Below are positions 13,980-64,000 of a DNA stretch of 64,000 nt, piece after piece. The position numbers and the translations under genes were made by a program. Every line of letters begins with the position of its first letter. Position 1 is the stretch's first letter. Below the pieces are notes generated by a model that saw nothing but the letters and a program-made list of their open reading frames with translations, made no database searches and was not told the DNA's origin. Source of the DNA: an uncultured Smithella sp. (GTDB lineage Bacteria; Desulfobacterota; Syntrophia; Syntrophales; Smithellaceae); contig CAZWCA010000009.1 in NCBI GenBank assembly GCA_964632255.1, positions 4,394 through 68,393 of the forward strand, written 5' to 3'.

Positions 13980-16900
13980 TCAGTTTACCGGAAGCGAGAA
14001 ATAGAAGGTGGCTCCCTTTCCGACCTCCCCTTCCGCCCAGACCCGGCCGCCGTGCCTATGGATAATTCGCTGGACGATTGCGAGCCCGACCCCGGTACCT
14101 TCGTATTCGCTTTCAGAGTGAAGCCGCTGGAAAACGCCGAAGAGCTTGTCATAATACTTCATATCGAAGCCGGTTCCGTTATCCCGGACATAATAAATGC
14201 TCTCTTTGCCCTTCACTTCTCCTCCAACTTCGATTACCGCCTTTTTACGGTGTCTCGTGAATTTGACGGCATTGGCCAGAAGATTGGACAAAACCTGCCC
14301 GATCAGCAAAGGATCGCCCTGTGCTCCGGGAAGATCTTCCATCCTCAATTCCAGTTTCCTATCAGGGTTGATAATGAGCTGTTCCTGCCAGACATCTTTC
14401 ACTACCTGGCCCATATTGATTTTTTTAAAGGAAACGGAGACGCGGCCGGACCTGGAAAAGCTGAGAATGTCATTGATCAGCCGGTCCATCTTTACGGCAT
14501 TCTCCCGAATGACCTGAATCCTCCGATTCGTTTCATGATCAAGAGCCTGCTCGCTTTTCAGGAGCATCCGGGAAAAACCATTAATCGCCCGCAGGGGCGC
14601 TCGAAGATCGTGGGATACGGAATAGCTGAAGCTTTCAAGTTCCTTGTTGGCGTCCTCCATTTGCAAACTGCGCCATTTCGATTCCTGCTCGGCCTGCTTC
14701 AGGTCGTGAATATCAGTGGTTGTCCCGATCCATTTTATAAGCTTCCCCTCATCATCCCTGATAGGAACGCCGCGGCTTAAATTCCAGCGGAACGATCCAT
14801 CTCTGTGCTTGAGACGATGCTCGATTTGATTCTCTGCGCCGGATTCAATCGCTTTTCGCCAGATATCCAGAGTCGCCGCAATATCTTCCGGATGGATGAC
14901 GGCATGCCAGTCCCAGTATCCCGAATCTTGCCGGATCAAGTCAGGAAATTCATCCCGGCGTTTATTGAAATAATAAATCAGGCCTTCGGGAGTAGAGGTC
15001 CAGACAAGTTGGGGCATGGCGTCGGCCATCTCCCGTAATTGCTCTTCGCTTCTTTTCAAGGCATCTTCAGCCATTTTGACCGCAGTCAGATTGACTGTTG
15101 TCGAGCCTACACCGATAACGTTTCCTTTCTCATCATGAACAGGCTCCCAGTAGACATCGAGGAAGATCCGGCCGCTCGGTCTGTTGAACCACATCTGTTC
15201 CCGAAGCTCGATATCTTCAGCCAGTACTCTTTTCTTGAATGCCGTGATATGCGCCGCCTCTTCCGGCGTGAAAATTTCATCGTCTCGCTTGCCGATGATC
15301 TCCTCCAGAAACGAAGTCCTCTGATTGTAAGCCCAGATGTACCGGAGATCACGATCCTGAACGGCAACCGATACCGGCGCATTCCTCAGAGCCAGGCGGA
15401 AATGTTCATCAGTTTCCCTCAGTGCTATTTCCACTCTTTTGAGTTCCGTAATGTCAAAGAAATACCAGAACCGGCCATAATTTTTTCCATTTACAGCGAT
15501 GTGGATGTAATCCCGAAGGCAAGTCCTCCCATCAGACATGGCGACTTCCTCGCCTCTCACGGGCCGTCCATGACTAATGATTTCTTGTATACGAGCGATG
15601 GCTTTATCCGGTTTCATATAATTATTTCTGATTTTGGAGAGCATCTCTTCCGCAGTCAAACCATTCAATTCTTCAGGTGATTCTTTCAAATGAAACATTT
15701 CGCAAAAGGCCTTGTTGGCAAATTCGACCACCCCTTCATTTGTTACAAGCAAAACCGCACAGAACATGTTGGACAGAACGTTATAAAAGCGCTGCATAAC
15801 AATCTGAAGGTTTTCTTCCGCCAGTTTTTTTTCTGTGATATCCTCGGACAGGATGGCTATAGAATCCCGCATAGGAACAACGGCCAGCCGGAACCATTTC
15901 GGGGCGACCATCTCTCCCTCATACATCTCTTCAACGATAGCCGGCGTGCCGGTTTCGGCAACCTTAACATAGGTTTCGAAAATACGGGTCCCACGGTAGC
16001 CGGGGAAGAGGTCCAGCAAACGTCTTCCAATAATCTCGCCGGGATTGGTTCCGTTCAGGCGGGCAATGGCTAGATTTTCATAAAGCCAGATAAAGTCGAC
16101 AACACGCCCTTTTTTATCGCGCACCGGTTCGAGGATGGTGAAGCCATCCGGAGAAAGCTCTTGCGCCACCCGGAAGCGCTGCTCGCTCTCCCTCAGCGCC
16201 TGCTCCGCCCGCTTGCGTTCGGTAATATCCACCAGAGTAACAAGAATCACATTTTCATCTTTTACGTTCAGGACCTGTGCCGACAGTTGTGCCATAAAGC
16301 GTTCGCCCGACTTTTTTCGGAACTCCTGCTCCCATCCATCAACAGAACCTTTCTCCCTCAGCTCTTGAACGAAACGAGCTGCGTCTTCGGACGTAGGCCA
16401 CATGTTCATCTCCCTGGCAGAATGGCCAATTGCCTCATCCCGGCTATATCCGTTCAGAGCTACCCAGGTATTATTTACTTCCAGGAAGAGCCCATCCTCT
16501 AAACGGGTCAGGGCAATGGCAGCGGGATTATTGGCAAAAGCGCGGGAGAACTTTTCCTCACTCTTACTCAATGCTTCCTCGGCCTTCTTACGCTCCGCTA
16601 TCTCTTGTTGCAATTCGGCTGTACGTTCCTGGACACGAGACTCCAAATCCTTTAAGAGCAGGTCTCTTTCCGCCTCAGCTGCTATGCGCTTTTTGTGCTC
16701 TTCCGCCTCTTCCAAGACCCGCTCAACAGCCGGGATCAGTCTTGAGAGCTTATGCTTAAGAACATAGTCTCTCGCCCCGCTGGTAAGGACCTCAATAGCC
16801 CGGTCTTCCGTTACTGCGCCTGTTACGAGGATGAATGGGATTTCAGGATGCTTCTTTCTTGCATAGGCAAGAGCCTGGATGCCGCTGTAGGTAGGAAGAT

Positions 16901-17123
16901 CGTAATCGGAAAGGATGAGATCAGGCGCGAATTCTCCGAGGGCCTGCTCGAAGGTTTCTTCCGTTTCAACCCGTTTCAGGGTGAAGGAGAGTTCCGCATC
17001 GCTCAGTTCGTACTCGATCAGCTCGGCATCGACCGGATTGTCTTCCAGCAACAGGATGCGGATCTCCTTTTGCTGGTTTTCGGGTTCTTTGAAGTTTTCT
17101 ATTTTGAGGGGATTCCCTTTCAT
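13980..17123 (-). CDS. hybrid sensor histidine kinase: N-terminal REC, multiple PAS, HisKA, HATPase_c (paralog C)
   Basis: 1047 aa, colinear with paralog B. It is highly similar by eye across the REC and the last ~730 aa, but has an unrelated first PAS module. H-box FSYSVSHDLRAPLR. Confidence 0.93.
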   Translation of the reverse strand: MKGNPLKIENFKEPENQQKEIRILLLEDNPVDAELIEYELSDAELSFTLKRVETEETFEQALGEFAPDLILSDYDLPTYSGIQALAYARKKHPEIPFILVTGAVTEDRAIEVLTSGARDYVLKHKLSRLIPAVERVLEEAEEHKKRIAAEAERDLLLKDLESRVQERTAELQQEIAERKKAEEALSKSEEKFSRAFANNPAAIALTRLEDGLFLEVNNTWVALNGYSRDEAIGHSAREMNMWPTSEDAARFVQELREKGSVDGWEQEFRKKSGERFMAQLSAQVLNVKDENVILVTLVDITERKRAEQALRESEQRFRVAQELSPDGFTILEPVRDKKGRVVDFIWLYENLAIARLNGTNPGEIIGRRLLDLFPGYRGTRIFETYVKVAETGTPAIVEEMYEGEMVAPKWFRLAVVPMRDSIAILSEDITEKKLAEENLQIVMQRFYNVLSNMFCAVLLVTNEGVVEFANKAFCEMFHLKESPEELNGLTAEEMLSKIRNNYMKPDKAIARIQEIISHGRPVRGEEVAMSDGRTCLRDYIHIAVNGKNYGRFWYFFDITELKRVEIALRETDEHFRLALRNAPVSVAVQDRDLRYIWAYNQRTSFLEEIIGKRDDEIFTPEEAAHITAFKKRVLAEDIELREQMWFNRPSGRIFLDVYWEPVHDEKGNVIGVGSTTVNLTAVKMAEDALKRSEEQLREMADAMPQLVWTSTPEGLIYYFNKRRDEFPDLIRQDSGYWDWHAVIHPEDIAATLDIWRKAIESGAENQIEHRLKHRDGSFRWNLSRGVPIRDDEGKLIKWIGTTTDIHDLKQAEQESKWRSLQMEDANKELESFSYSVSHDLRAPLRAINGFSRMLLKSEQALDHETNRRIQVIRENAVKMDRLINDILSFSRSGRVSVSFKKINMGQVVKDVWQEQLIINPDRKLELRMEDLPGAQGDPLLIGQVLSNLLANAVKFTRHRKKAVIEVGGEVKGKESIYYVRDNGTGFDMKYYDKLFGVFQRLHSESEYEGTGVGLAIVQRIIHRHGGRVWAEGEVGKGATFYFSLPVN

Positions 17124-42173: not shown

Positions 42174-42515
42174 TTAGCCTACGGCGACGCTTCCAACCTC
42201 ACCTGTACGCACTCTGATACAGTCATCCATAGGTAAAACAAAAATTTTCCCGTCCCCGATTTTCCCTGAACGAGCCCCCTTGATAATTGCATCCACGGCG
42301 GGTTTGACAAAATCATCGTTCACTGCTATCTCGAATCGTACCTTATCCAGTAGATTGACCTCAGTAAAAGCACCGCGATATGATTCCGTATATCCTCCCT
42401 GCGACCCGCAGCCGATAACACTGGACACAGTCATTTTTCCAACCTTGGCATTGGAAAGTGCCTGTTTGACATCAGTCAGTTTTTCCGGCTGTACAATTGC
42501 TACGATTAGTTTCAT
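42174..42515 (-). CDS. glnK: P-II nitrogen regulatory protein (GlnK-type, amtB-linked)
   Basis: 113 aa. MKLIVAIVQPEKL...T-loop GSQGGYTESYRGA...GKIGDGKIFVLPMDDCIRVRTGE. Immediately downstream of amtB. Confidence 0.92.
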   Translation of the reverse strand: MKLIVAIVQPEKLTDVKQALSNAKVGKMTVSSVIGCGSQGGYTESYRGAFTEVNLLDKVRFEIAVNDDFVKPAVDAIIKGARSGKIGDGKIFVLPMDDCIRVRTGEVGSVAVG

Positions 42516-42558: not shown

Positions 42559-44049
42559 TTACTTTGTCAGGAACCCCTGGAAGTCAGGGTAAGCTTTTGA
42601 ACCATGCTCACCAAGATCCAGCCCTGAAATTTCCTCTTCACGTGATACTCTCAACCCCGCCACGAGTTTGATGAGATACCAGAATATAAGAGCACCAACT
42701 AATGTAAAAGCACCAACTGCGGCAACGCCGGCAGCCTGGGCACCAAGAAGCTTTAAGCCGCCGCCGAATAAAAGACCGTTACCCGTAGCCGTTCCCGTAA
42801 TCTTGTCAACGGCGAAAAGACCAACCGCCAATGTTCCCCATATGCCATTAACTAAATGAACCGAAAGGGCACCAACGGGATCATCGATTTTAAGTTTGTC
42901 AAAAGTAATAACCGCCAGAACTACAATTACACCGGCAATCAAACCGATTATTGCAGCTGAGCCGACGTTGACAAAGGCGCAGGGAGCGGTAATCGCTACC
43001 AGACCGGCCAGGGCACCGTTGATGATCATGGAAAGGTCGGGTTTTTTCTGCAGAATCCAGGAAGTAGCCGTTGAACTCAGAATCGCCATTGCCGCGGCGG
43101 TGTTGGTTGTTACCGCGATATGCGCAATTGCGCTGCCATCACCTACCCCCATTGTAGAACCGGGGTTAAATCCGAACCAACCGAACCACAAAACAAGTCC
43201 TCCCAGTGTAACAATTGACATATTGTGTCCGAAAATTGGATTAATAGAACCATCAGCACGGTATTTTCCAACACGCGGGCCTAGAAGCAGTACACCAGCC
43301 AGGGCCGCCCATCCGCCGACGGAGTGAACAACGGTGGAACCGGCAAAGTCAAACATCCCCATAGATTGAAGGAAACCGCCACCCCAGATCCAGTGACCGG
43401 TAATGGGATACATAATTCCAACCAATAAGAAGGAGAAGAAGATAAAGGAATGAAATTTAATCCTTTCCGCTACGACTCCCGAAACAATGGTAGCCGCTGT
43501 TCCGGCAAAAACAAGCTGAAAGAAAAATTTAGCCCACAGCGGAACGCCGGTCCAGTTAATTGCTGAATAAACTCCCTTATATGCATCGCCTATAGCCGGA
43601 CTGTTATCAGCCCCTCCGACAAAGAATATTCCTTCAAGACCTGCAAATGGACTGCCGTTTCCAAACATCAGCCCCCAGCCGATTATCCAGAAGGCAGCCG
43701 AGGAAATTGCAAAAACAATGAAATTCTTCGCCAGGATGTTTACTGCGTTTTTAGCACGGCATAATCCCGATTCCACCATAGCAAATCCAAGATTCATAAA
43801 AAAAACAAGAAAAGCCGCGAACAACACCCAGACGGTGTCGATTCCCACCTGCATGGAGCTTTTTAACGTATCTACGGCCTTTTGCGTCACGTCTTTTACT
43901 GTTGCCTCCGTTACGGCTTTGACCGGAGCAACTGCCCCTGCAGCAGCCGGCGCCGATTGTCCCTGAGGTGTTTCCTGTGCAAGAACAATCATACTGGAAA
44001 CAAAAAATAATCCTATAATAACAAACAAAATGGTGATTAGCTTTTTCAT
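42559..44049 (-). CDS. amtB: ammonium transporter
   Basis: 496 aa. Signal peptide, 11-12 TM segments, DFAGSTVVHSVGGWAALAG and HLVNGIWGTLAVGLFA twin-His signatures. Confidence 0.95.
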   Translation of the reverse strand: MKKLITILFVIIGLFFVSSMIVLAQETPQGQSAPAAAGAVAPVKAVTEATVKDVTQKAVDTLKSSMQVGIDTVWVLFAAFLVFFMNLGFAMVESGLCRAKNAVNILAKNFIVFAISSAAFWIIGWGLMFGNGSPFAGLEGIFFVGGADNSPAIGDAYKGVYSAINWTGVPLWAKFFFQLVFAGTAATIVSGVVAERIKFHSFIFFSFLLVGIMYPITGHWIWGGGFLQSMGMFDFAGSTVVHSVGGWAALAGVLLLGPRVGKYRADGSINPIFGHNMSIVTLGGLVLWFGWFGFNPGSTMGVGDGSAIAHIAVTTNTAAAMAILSSTATSWILQKKPDLSMIINGALAGLVAITAPCAFVNVGSAAIIGLIAGVIVVLAVITFDKLKIDDPVGALSVHLVNGIWGTLAVGLFAVDKITGTATGNGLLFGGGLKLLGAQAAGVAAVGAFTLVGALIFWYLIKLVAGLRVSREEEISGLDLGEHGSKAYPDFQGFLTK

Positions 44050-44115: not shown

Positions 44116-44970
44116 TTAGAACGTGATACTGGCCATCAATCCACCGTATAAAAAAGAGCTGTCGCGATCATTAGGAGCTGCTCCACTCAAGCCGAATCCC
44201 TTCATTTCATTCTTGGCATCCGTTGAAAGCGGGAATACATAAGAAACAGTCGGTGTCAGTGTTATATAGGATGTAACTTTGACAGGGAGGCTGACACTTA
44301 TGCTCCCATCGTGAAAATTGCTGAATTTTTTATTTGTCGCCAGAGCATCCCCGTCAAATTCGGGATAAGTGGACTCATCGGTGCTCAGCAGATAGCTTGC
44401 CGTTGCCGCAAGTTTTAGAGATATCATCTTATTGAATTCGAACGCATGGGAAATACCCAGTAGAAAATACCAGTTATGGTAATGATCGATTTCCCGATAA
44501 ACCGTTAATGTCGGTGACAAAATTGTATTCAGGCCCACAGAGGCAAAGATTTCCTGAGAGTCGGGCCTGTCCGCCGCATCAGGATTAAGTGAACTGAGGC
44601 CGTAATATATGTAACCGCCGCCTATATTGAAAAGTCCCAGTGTTTTTGAATAGGAAAGAGTAAAATCCGTTTCGTTCCACGCGCTGCTGTAACTTTTGTC
44701 ATCTGTTCCGCTGTAATAGGGACGCGTATCCATGTTGCCCCATAAATTGGCGGAAAATCCCTTATAACCAACCGTAAAGGAAGGCTGGATTACAATACTG
44801 TTCCTGCTGAGTTCATACCCTCTCCAGATATACTTGCTTAAAACGGCTGCCGTTGCATCTGCCGTTGGTTTTTCCTCCTCGGCAAAGACCGGCGAAACTG
44901 AAGCAGTTAAAAAACACAGAGCCAGAAAACTGACAACTAATAGCACCCTAATCTGCAACCATTTTCTCAT
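44116..44970 (-). CDS. outer-membrane beta-barrel porin (TorF / Gcw_chp-like family)
   Basis: Start taken at MRKWLQIRVLLVVSFLALCFLTASVSPVFA (signal peptide). SKYIWRGYELS...QPSFTVGYKGFSANLWG, alternating beta-strand pattern, terminal F. First gene of the amtB-glnK operon. Confidence 0.75.
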   Translation of the reverse strand: MRKWLQIRVLLVVSFLALCFLTASVSPVFAEEEKPTADATAAVLSKYIWRGYELSRNSIVIQPSFTVGYKGFSANLWGNMDTRPYYSGTDDKSYSSAWNETDFTLSYSKTLGLFNIGGGYIYYGLSSLNPDAADRPDSQEIFASVGLNTILSPTLTVYREIDHYHNWYFLLGISHAFEFNKMISLKLAATASYLLSTDESTYPEFDGDALATNKKFSNFHDGSISVSLPVKVTSYITLTPTVSYVFPLSTDAKNEMKGFGLSGAAPNDRDSSFLYGGLMASITF

Positions 44971-45034
44971 AATGCTTCCTCCTGAACATCTTCTAATTTT
45001 TTTAAACAGTCCCGGTAACTGATGCCCTTTTATT

Positions 45035-45050
45035 TGCGAATGTCGTGCCG
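45035..45050 (-). promoter_or_regulatory. sigma54 -24/-12 promoter upstream of porin-amtB-glnK
   Basis: Minus-strand reading is CGGCACGACATTCGCA, with GG-N10-GC spacing exact. Close to the consensus TGGCACG-N4-TTGCA, ~65 nt upstream of the porin ATG. Confidence 0.7.
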
Positions 45051-45361
45051 CATCCATAACATATTGATATCACAGTATATATGTTCAAAAACAGGACATT
45101 ACATACTTAATAATAAACGATATTGTTATAAAATATTTTATTTTCCTTCCACTTTGTAGGATTGCAGGCTGCATGCATGGCAGTGATCGCTGATGAGGAA
45201 AAAATGATAAGAAAAAAATAAATAAATTTTGATATGGTTATAGAATTTTTTATCCGGTGGTTGAGTTTTTTGATGCCGAAAAAATAGATAAGGGAATTTT
45301 TATTTATTCGGCATGTTCTGGATTTAAGAAATGAGGCCGGTTTCAGATGTCTACTTAATAC

Positions 45362-46909
45362 TTATTTAAAAGAGGCAGGCTCGATGCCGTATTTCACGAT
45401 CCGCAATCCCATAACTCTTTCGGTCATGCCCAATACACGAGCTGCCTTGGCCATATTCCCGCGGCAGCGCTTCAATTCTTCCTCGATGATTTCACGTTCA
45501 AAGGCGGATAGTTTTTCTCTGAAAGTTCCCCCGCGCTTTGCACGTACCGTCATGTTGTTTTTTTGCAGACTATGAGGAAGATGGTTGCAACTAATAGTGC
45601 CGTCCGTACTCAACAGAACTGCTCTTTCAATGTAATTCTCCAGTTCTCTAATATTGCCGGGCCAGTTATAATTTACCAGAAGATCGATTGCCGGCCATGA
45701 TATGCCGGATATTTCCTTCCGCATATCTTTTGAGTATTTTTCAATAAAATGGTTGGCCAGTAACGGAATGTCGGTTTTACGTTCTCTAAGAGGCGGCACG
45801 GCAATAGGAAATATATTTAACCGGTAATATAAATCTTCCCTGAACATACCCTGCGCTACCCGTTCTTCAAGTTTACCGTTTGTGGCCGCAATAATTCGAA
45901 CATCCACTTTGATGGTTTCATTATCGCCTACCCGTTCAAATGCTTTCTCCTGGATGACACGCAGTAATTTTGCCTGAAGCGGTAATGTAAGCTCCCCGAT
46001 CTCGTCAAGAAAGATCGTACCCTGGTCGGCTATTTCAAAACGTCCCTTGCGCAAGGCAATAGCGCCGGTAAAGGCTCCTTTCTCATGCCCGAACAACTCG
46101 CTTTCGATAAGAGAATCAGGCAGGGCCGCACAATTGACCGTTACGAAAGGTTTGTCTGCCCGGTTTGACTGATAATGGATGGCATTGGCCACCCGTTCTT
46201 TACCAACGCCGCTTTCACCCAGCACCAGGACGGTAATATTTGTTCCGCATACTTTATCAATCGCAGTATAAATGCCCTGCATAGCCTTGGAGTTGCCGAT
46301 CATATTTCGCGGAGCATGCCGGATCCTTAATTCGTCGTGGAGGCGATTATTTTCCTCACGCACCATTTCCAGCTCTTCTTCAGCTAATTGCCTCAATCGG
46401 ACTGCCTGAGAAATGCTTGAAGCAATAATGGTCAACAGACGGACATCCTCTTCAAATGAAACATTTTCGTTAAACAGGCGGTCAACGGACAGGGCGCCTA
46501 TTATTTCATTACCGATTCTTATAGGAACACAAATGAAGGCAATTTCGTCCTTATCCAATGTTCTTGAACCTGTTTTGTTCAGGAAAAAGGGATCATGAGA
46601 AATCCTCGGGACAATGGCCGGTTCCCCTGTGTCAATTACCTTACCCGTAATTCCCTCACCCAGACGATATCGCCCCTTCATCAATTCCTCAGGAAGTAAA
46701 CCGTACGCCTCATCAATAAAAATTTCACCGCTGTTGCGATTCAGAATCGTGAGTGTGCCCCGGAGCATATCCATATGCTCGGCCATCATCCGCAGAATCG
46801 GTTTCAATGCCGTTTTCAGATCCAGATTTTCACTTAAATTCCGGCTGATTTCGAAAAGGAGTGTCAATTCTTTTATGGCCCGTAAGGCCTTGTCTTCCGG
46901 TGTAGCCAT
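45362..46909 (-). CDS. nifA: NifA-type sigma54-dependent transcriptional activator (GAF - AAA+ - Fis HTH)
   Basis: 515 aa. GAF domain, GESGVGKE Walker A, intact [23 protein letters not shown]-terminal [29 protein letters not shown]. Confidence 0.85.
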
Positions 46910-46962
46910 AATAACGCTTTCTGTTTAATTATGTTCTCATCCAGCCTTCCTGCTGTCGCTTA

Positions 46963-48360
46963 TCAGTCTTCTTCATGATCCCTGATTTTTAACCGCTGCA
47001 TACTTGGAGGTAAATGATTATGATGAATAACGCCGTCAGTACTTAAAACTACCGCCCTTTCTATATACCCTTTCAATTCCTGTACATTGCCCGGCCACTT
47101 ATAATTAATGAGGGAATCCATCGCCGAATGAGAGATGCTGTTTACTTCTTTGCCGGCTTCCTTTGCATATTGCTCAATAAAGTAGTTAGCCAGTAAAACA
47201 ATATCCTGTCTGCGTTCCCTCAGAGGAGGAACGATGATAGGAAATACATTAAGGTGGTAATACAGATCTTCTCTGAACTTTCCTTTCCGCACCTGACTTT
47301 CCAAGTCGCTGCTTGTTGCCGCAATGATGCGTACATTTGTGCCGCACTGTCTGTTTCCCCCGCATCTTTCAAATTTCCCCTCTTTAAGGACGTGTAACAA
47401 TTTTGCCTGGAGTAATGGTGTAAGAGCTGCAATCTCGTCAAGAAACAAAGTTCCTCCCCTTGCAATATCGAGTCCGCCTCTTCGCCGGCCGCCAGCGCCA
47501 ATGATAGTGCTTTCTTCATGCCCGAACAATTCACTTTCGATGATCGGTTCCGGAAGGTTGCTGCATACAACCTTTATGAAAGCCTGATTTGACCGGCTTG
47601 ACTGGCTATGTATCGCTCTGGCTATTCTTTCTTTCCCGACGCCGCCTTCACCAATAATGAGGACATTTGAATTTGAATCGCTTACTTTATAGATATAGTG
47701 ACAAATATTTTGTATAGCTTTGGAATCGCCGATAATTGCATCCGTTCTATTCCGCGCGTATAGTTCACTTTTAAGATTTTTTATTTCTTCGAGAAGTCTC
47801 TCATGTTCCTCTTCCGCCGCTTCCCGCAATTGAACCGCCTGAGCAATAATTAATGCGATTGACTTTAAAATTCTAATGTCTTCCTCAATGGGGACGGAAT
47901 TATCGAATATCCGGTCAACGGCGAGCGCACCTGTAATCTTTCCGCGGGTTTTTATGGGCACGCAGATACATGCCGCTTCATCCTTAACAACAAGACGTCT
48001 GGATATGTTTTTATCAAGGGAAAGCAGCCTTTCCGATACGGTCAGCATAACTGCGGGATGCATTGTATAAATAACCTTGCTTACTATTCCCCGGTCTGCC
48101 TGATACCCCATCTGCATGCCGATGCCATCAGAAAAGCCGTGTCTTTCCTCGATAATGATATCGTGTGAACTCTTTTTCAAGAGTATTATTGTACCGCGTT
48201 TCATCTCCGTGTACTCTGCGATAATAGGCAATATCAACTTGGATATTTTCCTGAGATCGATGGTCTCATTCAGTCTGCTGCTTATATTGAAAAGCAGTGC
48301 AAGCTCTTTTACTTGACATGAAGCCATCGTCTCTGCATTTGTGTTATAAATTTTACTCAT
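46963..48360 (-). CDS. NifA-like GAF-AAA+ protein lacking the DNA-binding HTH and with a degenerate GAFTGA loop
   Basis: 465 aa, colinear with nifA through GAF and AAA+ (GEGGVGKE, RIIAATS, WPGNVQEL). It reads [17 protein letters not shown] where GAFTGA should be, and ends ...LPPSMQRLKIRDHEED with no HTH. Confidence 0.85.
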   Translation of the reverse strand: MSKIYNTNAETMASCQVKELALLFNISSRLNETIDLRKISKLILPIIAEYTEMKRGTIILLKKSSHDIIIEERHGFSDGIGMQMGYQADRGIVSKVIYTMHPAVMLTVSERLLSLDKNISRRLVVKDEAACICVPIKTRGKITGALAVDRIFDNSVPIEEDIRILKSIALIIAQAVQLREAAEEEHERLLEEIKNLKSELYARNRTDAIIGDSKAIQNICHYIYKVSDSNSNVLIIGEGGVGKERIARAIHSQSSRSNQAFIKVVCSNLPEPIIESELFGHEESTIIGAGGRRRGGLDIARGGTLFLDEIAALTPLLQAKLLHVLKEGKFERCGGNRQCGTNVRIIAATSSDLESQVRKGKFREDLYYHLNVFPIIVPPLRERRQDIVLLANYFIEQYAKEAGKEVNSISHSAMDSLINYKWPGNVQELKGYIERAVVLSTDGVIHHNHLPPSMQRLKIRDHEED

Positions 48361-48568: not shown

Positions 48569-48583
48569 GCAAACTGCGTGCCA
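48569..48583 (-). promoter_or_regulatory. sigma54 -24/-12 promoter upstream of the two nifA-like genes
   Basis: Minus-strand reading is TGGCACGCAGTTTGC, a perfect match to TGGCACG-N4-TTGC, ~210 nt upstream of the 48360 start. Confidence 0.75.
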
Positions 48584-48881
48584 TTGTTGTAACTATTTGT
48601 AAATACGTGGTTTATATCGGAATTGAACTGCTAATAGTCGGCCCTATACGACACATATTTGTATCATGCCACCGTATGGTAGGAATTAATTGCAGGTTTT
48701 TATGGCGGTAACGTTAATTGGAGTATTTCTTCAACATAACCGTCTTTCTCTCCCATGAAAAAAAGAGGGGTCGCGTCTAAAGGAGCTAAGGAGACGTAGT
48801 TGATTCATGATTCCTGAGAAGCAGCGCCTTTCTGTAACGATCACATTTAATACCGTACGTAATTCCGGGTAGAGAAGAGAA

Positions 48882-55205: not shown

Positions 55206-55946
55206 TCAATAATTATTCCAATGAATGATTTTTCGTTCTGCCATGATCATAATCTTGTTCATTATCAATCCAAGCAACCCCACCAGGATAATAGTTAAAT
55301 ACATTTCAGGAGTTGCATAAGCGGTTTGGGCGTATACAACCCTGCTTCCAAGACCGTATTTCGCGCCCACCAGCATTTCAGTAACAATTCCGACTATGAC
55401 ACCCATGGACAGGGCAACTCTAGTTCCAATGAATATTTGAGGAAGCGCATCGAAGATCACTATCCTGCATAAAACCTGACGCCATGAAGCGCCCATTATC
55501 CTCGCAATTCTCACTCTGGTCTTATTGCCATTGATAACTCCCATCGACGTATTCAGTATAATGATCAACATGCATCCGAAAATAATCACGGCGATTCTCG
55601 ATTCTTCCCCGGTACTAAAAATCAACATGGACAAGGGGTAAACAAGAATAGGCGGGATAGAACGGAAGAAATCCAGCGCTGTTTCGACATATGGACGTAT
55701 CCTGCCGAAATAGCCCAAAAGAATTCCCATCGGAATTCCAGCTGCCAGTGCTGCCAGGACTCCAATAACTACCCTTATGAAGGAATAAACCATGTCCAGG
55801 TAAATACTTTTTTCAGCGAAGAGCCTGATGCCTACATTAAGCGTTTCTTGCGGAGTCGGCAGGAACAACGGATTAACCAGTTGAGTCCAGGATAATCCTT
55901 CCCATAAGAGAACTATTGCCGAAAATGTGATGATGTATTTTTTCAT
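55206..55946 (-). CDS. ABC transporter permease, NitT/TauT (SsuC/TauC-like) family
   Basis: Start taken at MKKYIITF. Six TM segments, and an EAA-like loop ARIMGASWRQVLCRIVIFDALPQIF. Embedded in the nif operon. Confidence 0.85.
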   Translation of the reverse strand: MKKYIITFSAIVLLWEGLSWTQLVNPLFLPTPQETLNVGIRLFAEKSIYLDMVYSFIRVVIGVLAALAAGIPMGILLGYFGRIRPYVETALDFFRSIPPILVYPLSMLIFSTGEESRIAVIIFGCMLIIILNTSMGVINGNKTRVRIARIMGASWRQVLCRIVIFDALPQIFIGTRVALSMGVIVGIVTEMLVGAKYGLGSRVVYAQTAYATPEMYLTIILVGLLGLIMNKIMIMAERKIIHWNNY

Positions 55947-55971
55947 TTTCTGCTCCGCACTATTGTTGCTC

Positions 55972-56796
55972 TCATGAGAAGCGCGCTTCACCTTGGAAAC
56001 AAATCCGATGTTCATGATCGTGGTTAATCCTTTGAAGAACGCGGCTGTTCCACGCGGGATTCGTTTTCTCCAGTATTATCTTGGCCGGTTTATCCGACAG
56101 GAAAATAACCCTGCTGGACAAATAGAACAAATGCTCTATATCATGAGCCACAATCAAAGTAGGGATCTTGATCTCTTCCCGTATTTCCAGAAGTTTATCC
56201 ATGAGCCATTCGCCATTCGAGCAGTCGAGGGCTGAAAATGGTTCGTCCATAAGCATCACATCCGGATCAGAGATTAATCCCCGTATAATTGCTGCATATT
56301 GCTGCTGTCCCCCGCTCAATTGGTATGGATATTTATCAATTGAGAACGGGATTCTTATAAGATTCGTAAGCCAGCATAATTTCTCTGCTATGAGACTCTT
56401 GTTCCATTTTTTTAAGACCAAGGGAAATAGGATATTATCCCTGATTGATAACCAGGGAAAAAGGCTGCTCCGGAAGTCTTGGAAAATATAAGAGATGCTA
56501 TTTTCTCCCGGCTTTTTTCTCCCTATAGTTATGTGCCCGGAATCCGGTTCGATGATGCCGGAAATCATATTGAGCAAAGTAGTTTTTCCACATCCGTTCG
56601 GGCCAAAAATCCCCACAACTTCATCATAGTCCACGGAAAGGCTGAATTCCTCAAAAATCCGTTCTTCCTTGCCGGCAGAAATTCTTGCCTTCTTGCATAT
56701 CTTGTTAATATGAATTCCGTTCACCATCATCCCAGTTCCATTCATTATCAATTGACCAGTGAATTGTTTGAAAAAAACTGAACTCCAAATTTTCAA
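55972..56796 (-). CDS. ABC transporter ATP-binding protein, NitT/TauT (SsuB/TauB-like) family
   Basis: GIFGPNGCGKTT Walker A, LSGGQQQ signature, LMDEPFSALD Walker B. Start uncertain: TTG overlapping the SBP stop at 56796, or internal ATGs at 56745/56730. Confidence 0.88.
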   Translation of the reverse strand: MKIWSSVFFKQFTGQLIMNGTGMMVNGIHINKICKKARISAGKEERIFEEFSLSVDYDEVVGIFGPNGCGKTTLLNMISGIIEPDSGHITIGRKKPGENSISYIFQDFRSSLFPWLSIRDNILFPLVLKKWNKSLIAEKLCWLTNLIRIPFSIDKYPYQLSGGQQQYAAIIRGLISDPDVMLMDEPFSALDCSNGEWLMDKLLEIREEIKIPTLIVAHDIEHLFYLSSRVIFLSDKPAKIILEKTNPAWNSRVLQRINHDHEHRICFQGEARFS

Positions 56797-57758
56797 TTAG
56801 CTCCACGGAAGAGAGCGTTTGAGAGATCAACCTTTTCTTTGATTATCCCCAATTTTTTATGTGAATCACCGATTCTTATCAGTTTAGCGGGTGTGAATTG
56901 CGACGATTTCAAAAACAAGGAATCCGGATACTTATTAACGAAAGACCTTTGCGCTTCGGGAAGGAATTTCCCCATACTTACTTTAGACTCTTGCTGATTG
57001 GCAGTTATGTATTCGATTGCCTCATCAAGGGAGTTAATAATTCGTTGGGCAACAACTGGATTCTTGTTAACAAAATCCTTGGCCATGCAAAAACTCGCAA
57101 AAGGAAATGGAGATCCTAAATATTTTGGAACCAGAGCTTCCTTGAGCAGGAGACGGCCGATACCTTTCTCAATGCATGCTGTAACCGCAGGATCATTTGT
57201 AAACATGGCGTCGACTATGCCTGACTCGAGAGAGGCGGGGGTCATGGCCGGCGCTACCTGTTGTATAATAACTTCGTCTAATTTTACGTTATTTTTTTGA
57301 AGGATGAGTTCAAGCCAGACTTTATACGCAAATGTTGGAAGAATTCCTATTCTTTTACCTTTAAGGTCGGAGATTTTTTTTATCGATGAATCCTTTTTTA
57401 CGACGAACATGCTCACAGGATGTTTGTTATCTTCCAGCATCAGAGTGGCATAATATAATTCTTTTTTGCTTCTGAGCTGAGCACTCAAGATAATAGGAAA
57501 GGCTGCGTAACCGGCAACATCAAGTTTCCCGCTGCAAAGAGCATCGATTAGCGGTTGAGCTGTATCAAACTTTACCAGATCGACATCAATACCGTTCTTT
57601 TTGAATATCCCCTTTTCTTGCGCTACAAAAATAGGAAGGCTTATCCGTAAAGTGCTACATCCTATCCTCACCCTCTCGTTGCCGGCGGCCGGATTACCGG
57701 CGCACAAAAATATTACGAACACAATGACCCAGATCAATCTTTCGGAATTCTTATTCAT
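56793..57758 (-). CDS. ABC transporter periplasmic substrate-binding protein, NMT1/SsuA-like
   Basis: 321 aa. Signal peptide, then the SsuA/NMT1-type pattern (LPIFVAQEKGIFKKNGIDVDLVKF...DVAGY...KGKRIGI...). Confidence 0.82.
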   Translation of the reverse strand: MNKNSERLIWVIVFVIFLCAGNPAAGNERVRIGCSTLRISLPIFVAQEKGIFKKNGIDVDLVKFDTAQPLIDALCSGKLDVAGYAAFPIILSAQLRSKKELYYATLMLEDNKHPVSMFVVKKDSSIKKISDLKGKRIGILPTFAYKVWLELILQKNNVKLDEVIIQQVAPAMTPASLESGIVDAMFTNDPAVTACIEKGIGRLLLKEALVPKYLGSPFPFASFCMAKDFVNKNPVVAQRIINSLDEAIEYITANQQESKVSMGKFLPEAQRSFVNKYPDSLFLKSSQFTPAKLIRIGDSHKKLGIIKEKVDLSNALFRGAN

Positions 57759-57778: not shown

Positions 57779-58513
57779 TTATTTAGCGAAGTCTAAGGTT
57801 TCATCTCCTGTTTCTGCTGTGCGGATGCGGATAGATTCGGATATGGGCATCACAAAAATCTTACCATCACCCGGTTTCCGGGTACGGTTAGCGGAGATAA
57901 TTGTCTCCGCTACTTTATTAACCAGCTTATCCGGTACGACAACAGAAAGCATACGCTTGGGAATAAGCCGTTGTGTATTGCCCAGTTGCGCGATAGCTTC
58001 CTCATAACCCTGTTCCGCCCCCTTGAGCACCTTGAAATCCAACACACCCTTGCCGCGTCCCAGACACTCGCGGACATGCAGGGATGAGATCTCTGCATCG
58101 ATTAGGGCCTCTTTCGTCTGGTTGATTTTGTTCATCCGGATAATAGCCACAACTTCTTTCATCCGGGCACCTTCCGCCTTGTCAGCATCCGTCTCTTTAA
58201 TACCGGAGCTGACCGTGTAGACTTCCTCCACGGGGGAAACGAAAATCTTGCCGTCTCCGAATGCACCGTTGGCTCCTGTGCGGGCAGCACCTATGACCGT
58301 TTTGATGACCATGTCCTTCTCCGCGTCCGGTACCACGATGATCAGTAATTCCTTGGGAATCCCGTCATAAGTAATGTCACCGATCTTGATTCCGCGCTGC
58401 CGTCCGCGTCCGGATACGTTCATGCGCGTAACAGCGGGGAATCCCTCGGCCATTAAGTTTTCTAAAACCTTATCAGCCTTTTCCGGCCTGACGATTGCTC
58501 TAACCATCATCAT
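57779..58513 (-). CDS. fused NifI1-NifI2 (two tandem P-II domains in one ORF)
   Basis: 244 aa. Residues 1-~112 are NifI1-like (short T-loop, GRGRQRG...FGDGKIFVSPV). Residues 118-244 are NifI2-like (long T-loop, GRGKGVLDF...IPKRM...PGDGKIFVMPI). The internal ATG at 58162 keeps a GAAGGTG SD-like sequence 6 nt upstream. Confidence 0.88.
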   Translation of the reverse strand: MMMVRAIVRPEKADKVLENLMAEGFPAVTRMNVSGRGRQRGIKIGDITYDGIPKELLIIVVPDAEKDMVIKTVIGAARTGANGAFGDGKIFVSPVEEVYTVSSGIKETDADKAEGARMKEVVAIIRMNKINQTKEALIDAEISSLHVRECLGRGKGVLDFKVLKGAEQGYEEAIAQLGNTQRLIPKRMLSVVVPDKLVNKVAETIISANRTRKPGDGKIFVMPISESIRIRTAETGDETLDFAK

Positions 58514-58517
58514 CGCT

Positions 58518-58797
58518 TTACCTCCTCACGTTTCGTTGTTCAGTTTCTAATCCCCTAATCCAATATCCTATTTGATCAGAGCAGAGCTTCCATCTCTTCC
58601 GTAGCCAGAGGTTTGGGGATGACGAATACCTGGTTTTCATCAATGACCTCAGCAATTTTGCGGTATTCATCAGCATGGTTAGGCGAGTGTCGCAGGCGAT
58701 AACGGATTTGCGGTTGATTCCGGTGCGCTGCAATCGTATTTTGTGTAGTAGTTGATTTCCCGATTCCGCCTTTGCCATAATAGCAATCTTCTTTCAA
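58518..58797 (-). pseudogene. nifH: nifH remnant: frameshifted and internally deleted dinitrogenase reductase gene
   Basis: About 280 nt where ~830 nt is expected. One frame reads ..[19 protein letters not shown].., then ..[32 protein letters not shown] (NifH C-terminus). The neighbouring frame holds KKIAI before the P-loop and ..[16 protein letters not shown] ([11 protein letters not shown] lacking PKADS). The switch I/II regions and the 4Fe-4S cysteines are absent. Confidence 0.85.
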
Positions 58798-58820
58798 TTT
58801 TATGTTTTTTTTAGCATAGG

Positions 58821-59612: not shown

Positions 59613-59957
59613 ATGAAAAGAATTGAAGCAATTATCCAGTTGGATAAAATTGAAGGCGTGTCCAATGCATTGAAAAAAATCGGTCATAATGGACTGGCGA
59701 TTACCGAAATCAAAGGCTATGGATATCAGGAAAATCTGCTGCGCCGGTTTCGTGGTGTTTCCTTTTCCAATAAGGTAGATCGCATCAACAAGGCAAAGGT
59801 TGAACTTACTGTAAATGAAAATGAAATTGATGAAATTGTCGACGCAATCCGCAAATCAGCATATGCCGGCAGCTTCATGAATGAAAAAATATTTATTCAT
59901 TCTGTAGATGATGCGTTGCGGATTTGCTTCGGAAATAAAGAAGTAAATGCCCTATAG
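59613..59957 (+). CDS. divergent P-II-like (GlnB-fold) protein
   Basis: 114 aa. MKRIEAIIQLDKIEGVSNALKKIGHNGLAITEIKGYGYQ...KAKVELTV follows the P-II beta-alpha-beta pattern. The T-loop and the GDGKIFV motif are degenerate (MNEKIFIHSV). AAGGAG SD. Confidence 0.7.
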   Translation: MKRIEAIIQLDKIEGVSNALKKIGHNGLAITEIKGYGYQENLLRRFRGVSFSNKVDRINKAKVELTVNENEIDEIVDAIRKSAYAGSFMNEKIFIHSVDDALRICFGNKEVNAL

Positions 59958-59974: not shown

Positions 59975-60172
59975 ATGAAAGATAATACATCTGTTATTGG
60001 AGAAAACATGTTGGAGCGTTGCGTAGCCGGTTTTGAGAAAACAGTCATCGTCCATGCCCTGACCAGAACAAGAGGCAATCAATCAGCCGCAGCCCAGTTG
60101 CTGGGAACAACGAAACGTGTTTTGACATATAAAGTTCATAAATATAAAATCGACTGCGAACAATACAAATAG
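59975..60172 (+). CDS. stand-alone Fis-type HTH protein (equivalent to a NifA/NtrC C-terminal DNA-binding domain)
   Basis: 65 aa. FEKTVIVHALTRTRGNQSAAAQLLGTTKRVLTYKVHKYKI matches the ..E...I..AL....GN...AA..LG..R.TL..K..KY.I pattern. GGAGGG SD. Confidence 0.75.
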   Translation: MKDNTSVIGENMLERCVAGFEKTVIVHALTRTRGNQSAAAQLLGTTKRVLTYKVHKYKIDCEQYK

Positions 60173-60665: not shown

Positions 60666-60681
60666 TGTACATTCAAGAACA
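60666..60681. promoter_or_regulatory. candidate NifA-type UAS (TGT-N10-ACA)
   Basis: TGTACATTCAAGAACA, ~150 nt upstream of the anfH -24 element. The pattern is short, so a chance occurrence is plausible. Confidence 0.35.
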
Positions 60682-60829: not shown

Positions 60830-60845
60830 TGGCACATATTCTGCT
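60830..60845 (+). promoter_or_regulatory. sigma54 -24/-12 promoter of the anf operon
   Basis: TGGCACATATTCTGCT (TGGCAC-N5-CTGCT, GG-N10-GC exact), ~60 nt upstream of the anfH ATG. Confidence 0.75.
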
Positions 60846-60869
60846 CATCAGGAAAATAATACTTCTTAA

Positions 60870-61733
<864 letters not shown>

Positions 61734-61751
61734 CGCGCAAAGGAGAATTCA

Positions 61752-62069
61752 ATGAAAATGATCAAGGCAATCATTCGTCCCGAAGCAGCGGATACAGTGG
61801 CGGACAGCCTGGCTGAAGCCGGATTCTTCTCAATGACGAAAATCAATGCGTTCGGCCGTGGAAAGCAAAAAGGGATTACCGTTGAAAACATGCATTACGA
61901 CGAGTTACCGAAGACGATGATCATGATGGTCGTCGAGGACAAGGACGTCGAAGAGGTGCTGAGACTCATAAAGTACAAGGCTTACACCGGAAACTTCGGC
62001 GACGGGAAAGTATTTGTAACGCCGGTTGACTATGCGTTCACCGTCCGCACCGGCGAAAAGACCTTATAG
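61752..62069 (+). CDS. nifI1: NifI1-type P-II protein of the anf operon
   Basis: 105 aa. MKMIKAIIRPE...FGRGKQKG...GNFGDGKVFVTPV. AAGGAG SD. Between the H and D genes. Confidence 0.9.
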   Translation: MKMIKAIIRPEAADTVADSLAEAGFFSMTKINAFGRGKQKGITVENMHYDELPKTMIMMVVEDKDVEEVLRLIKYKAYTGNFGDGKVFVTPVDYAFTVRTGEKTL

Positions 62070-62078
62070 GAGGATCGT

Positions 62079-62444
62079 ATGAAGGAAATCACGGCTATCA
62101 TCCGTCCCAAAAAAATCACCGCGACGAAAACCTCCCTGGAGAACCTCGGATTCCCCGGCATGACCGCGATACAGGTCCTCGGCAGGGGTCACCAGAGAGG
62201 AATCGCCGGAGAATTGAACTACGAAGTCAGTCCCAACATCATAGGAAAGTCCTGCGGCATGAAATACATTCCCAAACGCATGATCAAGATCGTCGTACGC
62301 GACGAGGACGTCGACAAAGTCGTCCGTACGATTGTCGATGTAAACCAGACGGCGCAGATTGGCGACGGGAAAATCTTCGTGAGTCCCGTTTTCGACGCAC
62401 TCAGAGTGCGCACGGACGAGACCGGCGACAACGCCCTGGCATAG
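62079..62444 (+). CDS. nifI2: NifI2-type P-II protein of the anf operon
   Basis: 121 aa. MKEITAIIRPKK...LGRGHQRG + extended T-loop ...YIPKRMIKIVV...IGDGKIFVSPV. GGAGGA SD. Confidence 0.9.
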   Translation: MKEITAIIRPKKITATKTSLENLGFPGMTAIQVLGRGHQRGIAGELNYEVSPNIIGKSCGMKYIPKRMIKIVVRDEDVDKVVRTIVDVNQTAQIGDGKIFVSPVFDALRVRTDETGDNALA

Positions 62445-62447
62445 TAA

Positions 62448-64000
<1,553 letters not shown>

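Follow-up and report, generated by a model that had tools for sequence, protein, structure and literature searches.

Directly upstream of the canonical nifA gene in the window (the whole 64 kb stretch of DNA analysed here) lies a second gene whose product is, judged by its sequence, a genuine NifA-derived protein that arose from a duplicated nifA. Purifying selection maintains this paralog, and the constraint on it sits in the AAA+ domain and the lid, not in the GAF sensor. Because the motifs of an activator are dead and yet selection keeps the gene, the most likely role of the paralog is to regulate NifA from within the NifA ring. We tentatively favor the reading that it is a selection-maintained pseudo-enhancer-binding protein which would enter NifA oligomers and damp their activity. 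The anatomy, residue losses, purifying selection, operon membership, promoter conservation, and rarity come directly from the data, whereas we infer that mixed oligomers form, that the effect is negative, and that there is any link to GlnK. The coordinates of all features discussed are given in Table 1.

Table 1. Features of the paralog, its operon, and the stand-alone HTH gene, with positions in the window.
Feature	Position	Strand	Basis or remark
Stand-alone HTH_8 gene, 65 aa	59975..60172		Pfam HTH_8
Conserved 39-nt block, AATTCCTACCATACnGTnnCATGATACAAATATGTGTCG	48649..48687	(-)	precedes the -24 element by about 65-105 nt
Sigma-54 promoter (-24/-12), TGGCACGCAGTTTGC	48569..48583	(-)	209 nt ahead of the start codon of the paralog
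Paralog, NifA-derived putative pseudo-enhancer-binding protein, 465 aa	46963..48360	(-)	Pfam and NCBIfam scans
GAF domain of the paralog, aa 19-177	47830..48306	(-)	Pfam; highly divergent relative to the GAF domains of NifA proteins
Val265 in place of the Glu-switch Asn (PspF N64)	47566..47568	(-)	alignment
Degenerate L1 loop, STIIGA for GAFTGA	47494..47511	(-)	alignment to NifA
REDLYYH, trans-acting RxDxxxR motif in which His369 replaces the second Arg (PspF R168)	47254..47274	(-)	alignment
WPGNVQ, sensor II Arg (PspF R227) replaced by Gln427	47080..47097	(-)	alignment
Paralog-nifA spacer, 53 nt	46910..46962	(-)	ORF coordinates
Canonical nifA, 515 aa	45362..46909	(-)	GAF; AAA+ with intact GAFTGA, RxDxxxR, and sensor II; Fis-type HTH (HTH_8)
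Porin-like outer-membrane protein gene, same operon	44116..45057	(-)	weak Pfam Gcw_chp match
amtB ammonium transporter gene	42559..44049	(-)	Pfam Ammonium_transp, 407 bits
glnK-type P-II gene, last in the window operon	42174..42515	(-)	Pfam P-II

The paralog and its operon

Per Pfam and NCBIfam scans, the paralog consists of a GAF domain, a long linker helix, an AAA+ domain, and a lid, with no DNA-binding domain. Sigma54_activat is matched at 192.9 bits (Pfam gathering cutoff 20.2) and AAA_lid_14 is matched as well, the GAF match reaches 31 bits versus 49 in NifA, and HTH_8 is not matched in the paralog by Pfam. The protein ends 13 residues past the lid, and the spacer that follows is too short for an HTH, so there is no room for one between the paralog and nifA. 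A pairwise alignment with the neighboring NifA is colinear over 447 residues with 52% identity and one gap. The NifA equivalog model TIGR01817 in NCBIfam scores the paralog at 387.2 bits, below its curated cutoff of 528.85 (the canonical NifA scores 523 bits), and the match spans model positions 3-438 of 534, which indicates that the C-terminal part is missing. An AF2 model of the paralog (pLDDT 85.9) was searched with Foldseek, in which the AAA+ domain superposes on those of ZraR, NtrC1, and FleQ with TM values of 0.92-0.95. Inspection of the N-terminal sequence found no conserved Cys motifs of the AnfA/VnfA kind.

The spacing of 53 nt between the paralog and nifA recurs in a Smithella MAG (contig L003, 5997..6049), and no terminator-like site was detected within the spacer in the window. 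The paralog, nifA, porin, amtB, and glnK genes make up one sigma-54 operon, whose gene order is cyclically permuted in Smithella: there, the porin-like gene again sits before amtB, and glnK lies directly upstream of the paralog. The promoter is the sole exact TGGCAC-N5-TTGC in the 64 kb, and it aligns with TGGCATGGCATTTGC, which precedes the porin-amtB-glnK-paralog-nifA operon of contig L003. Promoter and upstream block are thus conserved between the window and Smithella despite the permuted gene modules. The 39-nt block is near-identical between the two, with diverged flanking DNA, and would be a candidate enhancer (UAS) for the activator of the operon. No NifA-type UAS (TGT-N10-ACA) was found upstream of the operon promoter, the block does not match one either, and a search for inverted repeats in the same region yielded nothing convincing. 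In the favored reading, one nitrogen-regulated sigma-54 operon supplies the paralog together with NifA, AmtB, and GlnK.

Several claims of an earlier note on this DNA are borne out by these results, namely the colinearity of the two proteins through GAF and AAA+, the missing HTH, the tandem arrangement at 53 nt, the perfect sigma-54 promoter, and the standard nature of the downstream NifA (intact GAFTGA and HTH_8). The pairing of the paralog with nifA recurs in the Smithella MAG and fails in a third lineage (contig L002), where an antitoxin-like gene, and not nifA, comes after the paralog; tandem linkage is therefore not universal.

The stand-alone Fis-type HTH gene pointed out in the same note exists, but the suggestion that it and the paralog form a split activator was rejected. 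Its product shares only 39% identity with the NifA HTH and belongs to a separate family of 65-77-aa HTH_8 proteins with at least 34 clusters, far more widespread than the paralog, whose members immediately follow a P-II gene at each of the eight places where the preceding gene could be read. No paralog was seen on the contigs of these places, at least one of which carries a complete NifA.

Motifs, selection, and distribution

We compared three paralogs (the window protein and its two orthologues) with 119 canonical NifA homologues, using PspF residue numbering checked against 2bjw. The L1 loop of the window paralog reads GHEESTIIGAGG where its NifA counterpart has an intact GAFTGA, with no indels versus NifA across the loop, and the three paralogs read STIIGA, GAVNGT, and GAIWGA. 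The F and T of GAFTGA, invariant in the canonical set (119/119), are accordingly I/V/I and I/N/W. The second Arg of RxDxxxR (R168) and the sensor II Arg (R227) are likewise present in 119 of 119 canonical sequences; the former is H/Q/Q in the paralogs, giving RxDxxxH, RxDxxxQ, and SxDxxxQ, and the latter is Q in all three, within a WPGNVQELKG stretch unchanged among them. The Glu-switch N, found in 112 of the 119, is V/V/S. Walker A (GEGGVGKE) and Walker B (LFLDE) are both intact in the window paralog, while the two orthologues have FLED and FLEE in place of FLDE; since Walker B thus varies (DE, ED, EE), nucleotide handling may differ across the clade.

Positions at least 95% conserved in the 119 homologues and yet changed in every paralog include F85, T86, Q/E125, R168, and R227, and the changed columns are enriched for known functional positions (p ~0.01, with the residue list picked post hoc). 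Five replacements are the same in all three paralogs (Q125K, F96L, R227Q, E230K, and N231G). NifA-conserved columns are retained in all three most fully in the lid (22/26), followed by the AAA+ domain (49/74) and the GAF domain (19/45, with a further 10/45 altered in all three).

The trans-acting RxDxxxR motif was defined in PspF as R162, D164, and R168 (PMC3419264). In that work, R168H had a Vmax of 0.43 versus 39.5 min-1 for the wild type and a Km above 5 mM, about 1% ATPase, and N64Q reached 1.5 min-1; R168 variants formed hexamers independent of nucleotide, and mixed rings of PspF variants did form (PMC3419264). The losses at the equivalents of R168, R227, and N64 make a non-catalytic, interaction-based role for the paralog more plausible, and by these motifs it is predicted not to hydrolyse ATP normally.

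As for the motif claims of the earlier note, the loss of GAFTGA is clear, and its proposal that such a protein could neither remodel sigma-54 holoenzyme nor bind a UAS alone agrees with the altered L1 loop and the absent HTH, by which the paralog is predicted to touch neither sigma-54 nor DNA. Its description of Walker A/B and the WPGN region as kept holds for the Walker motifs of the window copy and fails for the WPGN region, in which the sensor II Arg that follows is Gln. The paralog is more degenerate than was first noted, with RxDxxxH, the sensor II Gln, and Val at the Asn64 equivalent in addition.

The paralog protein is identical in three independent SRA assemblies, and its two orthologues, one from a Smithella sp. 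MAG with 73% identity and another with 57%, have the same architecture and losses. Samples that contain the gene are SRR9674393, SRR9590233, SRR36158023, and SRR15035647. Frameshift or mis-assembly, raised earlier as an explanation for the altered loop and the truncation, is ruled out by these identical assemblies, by the sharing of both features with orthologues in two other lineages, and by the indel-free L1 loop. Three lineages at dS 0.8-1.5 have kept the frame open, with dN/dS of 0.18-0.22 overall and 0.08-0.14 in AAA+/lid, which rules out a pseudogene. At the same divergence, dN/dS is 0.195 for the paralog versus 0.091 for the neighboring nifA; by domain, it is 0.14 in the AAA+ domain, 0.11 in the lid, and 0.29 in the GAF domain, the last versus 0.04 in the GAF of NifA. 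The gating by GAF that had been proposed is weakened, the GAF domain being the least constrained part of the protein.

In an exhaustive profile search of 1.84 billion representatives, the paralog clade made up just one cluster at 50% identity, with the score falling from 944 to 529 bits at the next match after the clade. A word-indexed search found three paralog clusters, a GTDB genome scan found the Smithella MAG as sole carrier, and a JGI metagenome scan returned no clade member, only unrelated EBPs at 38-47% identity. Because the clade amounts to one such cluster, the paralog is a lineage-specific invention and not a general solution, which undercuts the idea that it fills the NifL role that anaerobes lack. 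An NJ tree places the paralogs in one long-branched monophyletic group, which is no nearer to their own NifA than it is to other NifAs of the Syntrophia type; the tree is uninformative for dating the duplication, and with only three lineages carrying the paralog, comparative power is low.

Other GAF-AAA+ representatives with degenerate L1 loops were also seen (P0152, P0159, P0171, P0224, P0246, and P0265). Most of them retain an HTH, and of the two neighborhoods retrieved, that of P0224 is non-nif and P0159 lies on a contig too short to show one; they are a different phenomenon. A literature search, incomplete in coverage, found a NifA-derived dead paralog described nowhere, which does not prove absence.

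Possible roles in NifA regulation

Of the bEBP architecture, the paralog retains the AAA+ fold with its Walker A P-loop, the lid, and the long helix that links GAF to AAA+. Residues have been lost on both faces of its ATP site: the second Arg of RxDxxxR acts in trans, whereas the sensor II Arg and the Asn of the Glu-switch act in cis. Through the conserved AAA+ and lid surfaces, the linker helix, or both, it could co-assemble with NifA. All ATP sites bordered by the paralog would then be crippled, and its L1 loop would be unable to engage sigma-54, so that each paralog subunit in a ring would lower NifA output. In this way the paralog would act stoichiometrically, much as NifL does, to damp nif/anf activation or set its threshold, and GlnK may modulate it, since glnK and the paralog are linked in all three lineages. 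Paralogous bEBPs of nitrogen fixation, VnfA1 and VnfA3, are known to form hetero-oligomers (PMC9542535). In the HrpR/HrpS hetero-hexamer, the GAFTGA Thr is needed in both partners (PMC3105312), which makes a partner without GAFTGA likelier to subtract activity than to add it. A constitutive 1:1 poison would leave NifA useless, so an inhibitor of this kind must be conditional. The GAF domain would be the obvious sensor for conditional control, yet no other part of the paralog is so poorly conserved, an observation that counts against damping.

It is unlikely, though it has precedent, that the paralog instead forms active hetero-oligomers with NifA, obligate or facultative, as a structural, non-catalytic subunit, altering ring assembly, stability, or promoter choice and possibly switching between Mo-type nif and Fe-only anf. 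Hetero-oligomeric bEBP pairs are known and often tandem-encoded, VnfA1/VnfA3 co-activate Fe-only nitrogenase genes (PMC9542535), and FleT likewise has no HTH (PMC10084136). The window itself carries both the Mo-type nifDK-EN and the Fe-only anfH-I1-I2-D clusters and shows only one complete NifA-type activator. HrpS with Walker B and sensor II substitutions retains about 10-15% activity (PMC3105312), so the ATPase of one partner can be partly dispensable. Nevertheless, HrpRS strictly needs the GAFTGA Thr in both partners, and F and T are gone from all three orthologues. Loss of the R168 equivalent should moreover cripple the ATP site of a neighboring NifA, and losses of the N64 and R227 equivalents the paralog's own site; with both faces affected, every paralog-containing interface is predicted to be inactive.

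It is somewhat less likely still that the paralog acts outside NifA rings as a P-II adaptor or decoy, binding GlnK, another P-II protein, or a small ligand via its GAF or AAA+ surfaces and buffering or relaying the nitrogen signal to NifA or AmtB. P-II proteins control the GAF domains of NifA in a number of Proteobacteria, and a P-II gene lies immediately 5' of the paralog in two of the three lineages and elsewhere in its operon in the remaining one. AnfA of R. palustris is reported to need P-II (PMC12093980). The linkage to glnK is, however, equally explained by membership of an Ntr-type operon alongside amtB, the GAF domains of the paralogs differ widely (the window protein and P0003 share 43% identity there), and the strongest constraint falls on the AAA+ domain and lid, the pattern predicted by ring contacts.

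That the gene is a decaying duplicate, or a frameshifted or mis-assembled nifA without function, is highly improbable: the loss of several catalytic motifs, an evolutionary rate about two-fold that of nifA, the very narrow phylogenetic spread, and a nifH relic in the window (gene decay does occur in this locus) speak for it, but it is largely refuted by the intact frame and dN/dS values in three lineages, the five shared replacements, the identical assemblies, and the indel-free loop.

For two decades, engineered mixed hexamers have been used to dissect bEBP rings. If damping of the NifA ring is correct, a natural subunit combining losses in GAFTGA, RxDxxxR, sensor II, and the Glu-switch would show that cells regulate by ring poisoning or dilution. 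Rather doubtfully, the paralog might be the first natural poison-subunit bEBP regulator, an activator-derived AAA+ pseudo-enzyme entering the NifA ring, maybe under GlnK control and maybe biasing nif versus anf. It would suggest a second layer of control on nif/anf transcription in some syntrophic Deltaproteobacteria-type anaerobes (Smithella) in which NifA is present and NifL absent. The paralog-NifA pair is amenable to direct cloning and testing, and the paralog could serve as an added part for tuning NifA in engineered diazotrophs. Since it is known in three lineages only, its general importance is limited unless similar pseudo-EBPs prove common.

Comparison with known systems

TyrR, PhhR, Rhodobacter capsulatus NtrC, and HupR are bEBP-like proteins that have lost GAFTGA and act at sigma-70 promoters. 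These proteins keep their DNA-binding domain and act directly at promoters, whereas the paralog has none.

In the NifL-NifA systems of Azotobacter and Klebsiella, the regulator gene also lies directly 5' of nifA, and a sigma-54 promoter drives both genes together; the paralog has the same placement, upstream of nifA in a shared sigma-54 operon. Stoichiometric protein-protein inhibition of NifA would be common to both, being the role proposed for the paralog. However, NifL is a PAS/GHKL histidine-kinase-like protein with no homology to the paralog, in which Pfam detects only GAF, AAA+, and lid and no PAS or GHKL/histidine-kinase-like domain. NifL sequesters NifA (PMC12998190) by a foreign fold, whereas the paralog is proposed to enter the AAA+ ring. 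Any resemblance would be functional, not by descent.

FleT of Rhodobacter/Cereibacter sphaeroides is, like the paralog, an HTH-less protein of the bEBP family and works only with a DNA-binding paralogous bEBP, FleQ (PMC10084136, PMC7277832). FleT is also without an N-terminal domain and is a co-activator (PMC10084136), whereas the paralog keeps its GAF domain and linker and has lost the sigma-54 contact residues and key ATP-site Args, which FleT is not known to have lost.

HrpR/HrpS, RedR1/RedR2, and VnfA1/VnfA3 are paralogous bEBPs, often tandem-encoded, that form mixed oligomers, the last pair in nitrogenase regulation. The paralog and nifA are similarly two paralogous bEBP genes in one operon, spaced by 53 nt in two species. 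In the known pairs, both partners bind DNA or have an HTH, and HrpRS requires both GAFTGA loops; the paralog, by its motifs, would be blind to both DNA and sigma-54. Closest at the residue level are the engineered PspF variants (R168A/H/K, N64Q, and GAFTGA substitutions), in which the same residue classes are altered (PMC3419264). Those are laboratory point mutants with a single change each, whereas the paralog, natural and maintained by selection, combines four or five.

Anatomy of the paralog and losses in its AAA+ core

The NifA paralog and nifA are co-transcribed in tandem, and the 53-nt spacer between them holds no terminator-like site. Pfam assigns GAF, Sigma54_activat and AAA_lid_14 domains to both proteins and HTH_8 to NifA only, the paralog ending 13 residues past its lid. 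On the NCBIfam model for the NifA equivalog, whose cutoff is 528.85 bits, NifA falls just short with 523 bits and the paralog reaches 387 bits, its match stopping at model position 438 of 534. The two align over 447 residues with 52% identity and one gap, and the paralog reads GHEESTIIGAGG at the position of NifA's GAFTGA (L1) loop. The two ORFs, their colinearity, the broken GAFTGA, the missing HTH and the promoter are as the earlier note described them. The confident AF2 model of the paralog (pLDDT 85.9) comprises GAF, a 45-residue linker helix and the AAA+ domain of a bacterial enhancer-binding protein (bEBP), which superposes on ZraR, NtrC1 and FleQ with TM 0.92-0.95; by descent the paralog belongs to the bEBP AAA+ fold family.

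Features of the window
Feature	Coordinates	Strand	Remark
ORFs of 1052 and 1047 aa	9225..12383; 13980..17123	-	1.6 kb apart
nifA	45362..46909	-	515-aa ORF
Paralog gene	46963..48360	-	465-aa ORF
Sigma-54 promoter TGGCACGCAGTTTGC	48569..48583	-	sole exact TGGCAC-N5-TTGC in 64 kb
39-nt conserved block	48649..48687		
Assembly stop	48773		108 nt downstream of nifN
SsuA/TauA-like ABC transporter	55206..57758	-	three genes (binding protein, ATPase, permease)
Double P-II ORF	57779..58513	-	244 aa; domains at residues 1-102 and 118-239
nifH relic	~58560..58800	-	N-terminal P-loop piece fused out of frame to C-terminal piece
P-II gene	59613..59957	+	
HTH_8 gene	59975..60172	+	65 aa, stand-alone
TGT-N10-ACA site	60666..60681		upstream of anf promoter
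Fe-only nitrogenase cluster	60830..64000	+	complete start
Sigma-54-like promoter TGGCACATATTCTGC	60830..60844	+	ahead of anfH
anfH	60906..61733	+	sole intact Fe-protein gene in view
Two small P-II genes	61752..62069; 62079..62444	+	anf cluster
anfD	from 62460	+	extends beyond window

Aligned with PspF (sequence and numbering verified against PDB 2bjw), its own two orthologues and a set of 119 canonical NifA-type homologues, the paralog is more degenerate than the earlier note described: Walker A and, in the window copy, Walker B are retained as stated there, but the supposedly intact WPGN region has Q at sensor II R227. Conservation reaches ≥95% in 97 AAA+/lid columns; in ten of them all three paralogs differ, and five of the ten have a known function (hypergeometric p ~0.01, with a residue list picked after the fact).

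Residues in PspF numbering; paralogs with the window copy first, then the two orthologues
Residue	Element	Canonical	Paralogs
G36/G39/G41/K42/E43	Walker A	kept	kept
N64	Glu switch	N, 112/119	V/V/S
F85	GAFTGA	F, 119/119	I/V/I
T86	GAFTGA	T, 119/119	I/N/W
R95	base of L1	R, 119/119	G/G/S
F96	base of L1	F, 119/119	L/L/L
D107/E108	Walker B	DE	DE/ED/EE
E125 (Q in NifA)	trans-acting	Q, 119/119	K/K/K
R131	L2 loop	kept	kept
T148	sensor I	kept	kept
R168	RxDxxxR second Arg	R, 119/119	H/Q/Q
R227	sensor II	R, 119/119	Q/Q/Q

The RxDxxxR motif has been called ubiquitous among bEBPs; PspF R168H has a Vmax of 0.43 versus 39.5 min-1 and a Km >5 mM, R168 variants form nucleotide-independent hexamers, and N64Q reaches 1.5 min-1 (PMC3419264). 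The GAFTGA threonine occurs in >97% of bEBPs and is needed for activation (PMC3105312). Four functional features that define a sigma-54 activator are missing from the paralog (GAFTGA, RxDxxxR, sensor II and a DNA-binding domain). From the residue losses read with these experimental data it should be unable to bind an enhancer or to engage sigma-54, and neither its own nor its neighbour's side of a site should sustain normal ATP hydrolysis.

Degenerate L1 loops were also seen in other GAF-AAA+ proteins among the profile-search representatives (P0152, P0159, P0171, P0224, P0246 and P0265); most retain the HTH, Walker or Arg residues are sometimes altered, and one such gene lies between ruvA and ptsI, distant from any nif gene (contig L017, 8001..9587). 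GAFTGA-less bEBP-like proteins may be commoner than usually assumed.

Orthologues, selection and distribution

The identical 465-aa protein occurs on contigs of three independent SRA assemblies. One orthologue (MEN6331962.1, 73% identity), from a Smithella sp. MAG (JBDKVD010000197), bears no annotation beyond 'sigma 54-interacting transcriptional regulator'; another (57%) lies on a JGI metagenome contig. Both have the paralog's architecture and losses. An assembly artefact was rejected on these grounds, and the frameshifts that the earlier note allowed for are not borne out, since orthologues in two lineages share the loop loss and the truncation. Between window and Smithella, the paralog has a dN/dS of 0.195 (dS 0.81) and the neighbouring nifA one of 0.091; comparison with the third lineage puts the paralog at 0.18-0.22. 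By domain, paralog and NifA values are 0.14 versus 0.08 in AAA+ and 0.11 versus 0.10 in the lid, so that constraint there nearly equals NifA's, and 0.29 (relaxed) versus 0.04 in GAF. Several replacements, including the entire WPGNVQELKG stretch, are the same in all three orthologues, which looks like new constraint rather than drift. Together with the dN/dS values, they led us to reject a pseudogene.

A word-indexed search of 5.8 billion clusters returned only three clusters of the paralog clade, the remaining matches being full-length NifAs at ~50% identity. When 1.84 billion 50% representatives were searched exhaustively with a profile, one clade cluster came up at 944 bits, with the next match at 529 bits; a scan of GTDB species genomes found the Smithella MAG only, and a JGI metagenome scan yielded nothing above 47% identity. 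In a neighbour-joining tree the three paralogs form one long-branched clade without special affinity to their own NifA. We found no description of a NifA-derived dead paralog in the literature searched, whose coverage is incomplete.

Operon and neighbouring nitrogen-fixation genes

The window order is sigma-54 promoter, paralog, nifA, porin-like gene, amtB, glnK; that of Smithella is sigma-54 promoter, porin-like gene, amtB, glnK, paralog, nifA, then a nifH-I1-I2-D-K-E cluster. The -24/-12 element, a CCCTAATTA tail and the 39-nt block are conserved between the two promoters, and the DNA between block and element has diverged. Because the promoter regions are homologous despite the differing gene order, the five genes make up one nitrogen-regulated operon with two modules cyclically permuted, the paralog-nifA pair having shifted as a unit with its spacer length unchanged. 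The 39-nt block does not match the TGT-N10-ACA NifA site; since the operon includes amtB-glnK, its input more likely comes from an activator of the NtrC type. The paralog of the third lineage has a P-II gene before it and, after it, a gene for an AbrB/SpoVT-like antitoxin. Logan assemblies of the same organism, three in number and independent, break off at precisely one nucleotide between nifN and the operon promoter, which suggests a strain-variable junction and agrees with the cyclic permutation relative to Smithella.

Upstream of the operon lies a Mo-type nifDK-nifX-nifEN cluster, and on the opposite strand a Fe-only anfH-I1-I2-anfD cluster (AnfD 1074 bits, cutoff 873.8) with a GC content of 0.53 versus ~0.43 in adjoining DNA. 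The nifH on the Mo-type strand is a broken relic with ~190 codons absent, and the Mo-type cluster is therefore without an intact nifH of its own. The double P-II ORF, between the relic and the remainder of the cluster, appears to be a fused NifI1-NifI2; the SsuA/TauA-like genes are inserted between it and nifD, an unusual site inside a nif structural operon. The two long same-strand ORFs are possibly duplicated transporter genes.

The stand-alone HTH gene, in which the earlier note saw a possible split activator, does exist. However, its HTH_8 product has 39% identity to the NifA HTH and belongs to a conserved family (at least 34 clusters, 65-80% identity), and a P-II gene lies 9-21 nt upstream in 8 of 8 places with a readable upstream gene. 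It is therefore an independent module, and we rejected it as the paralog's missing half. One 276-kb contig carries the gene twice, as amtB-PII-HTH-nifA (complete NifA) and amt-PII-HTH-glnA, with no paralog seen in the stretches read. The P-II/HTH_8 module of the window recurs on other contigs (L010 9650..10225 and 14428..14990, L011 2..448, L013 3..455, L016 836..1417), with Fis-type proteins of 65-77 aa and amtB, nifA, glnA or anfH as neighbours. The HTH_8 protein may be a small P-II-controlled DNA-binding protein; we found no description of the module.

Proposed action on NifA and known systems

Taking anatomy, residue losses, selection and co-transcription with nifA as established, we infer that the paralog acts through contacts of its conserved AAA+ and lid, perhaps also the linker helix, NifA being the most plausible partner. 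In a mixed ring, a site that pairs the Walker motifs of NifA with the trans face of the paralog would have no R168 equivalent, one built on the paralog's cis face would have no N64 and R227 equivalents, and the paralog's L1 loop would be unable to engage sigma-54. Each paralog subunit entering the ring would thus put two active sites out of action and take away one sigma-54 contact, yielding a dose-dependent damper of NifA in a genomic layout like nifL-nifA. We tentatively favour this mixed-ring damper. Mixed rings among paralogous bEBPs have precedent in HrpR/HrpS (PMC3105312), FleQ/FleT and RedR1/RedR2, and mixed oligomers in nitrogenase control in VnfA1/VnfA3. As weak points of the damper model, no conditional switch is obvious, GAF being the least conserved part of the paralog, and one lineage is without an adjacent nifA.

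A non-catalytic positive subunit, altering NifA assembly or nif-versus-anf promoter choice, is unlikely: HrpRS needs the GAFTGA loop in both partners (PMC3105312), which speaks against a positive role for a GAFTGA-less one. More doubtful still is a role outside NifA rings altogether, as an adaptor or decoy that binds GlnK. A decaying duplicate is barely credible, being largely refuted by the identical assemblies, the orthologues, dN/dS and the shared replacements.

The paralog is known from three lineages only, with a function that can so far only be proposed, and the question it poses is mechanistically pointed and directly testable. As a mixed-ring damper it would act like NifL, to which it is unrelated by descent. 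FleT likewise has no HTH; in contrast, the paralog retains GAF and its proposed direction of action is opposite. It resembles laboratory loss-of-function variants of PspF, but is natural and combines their changes.
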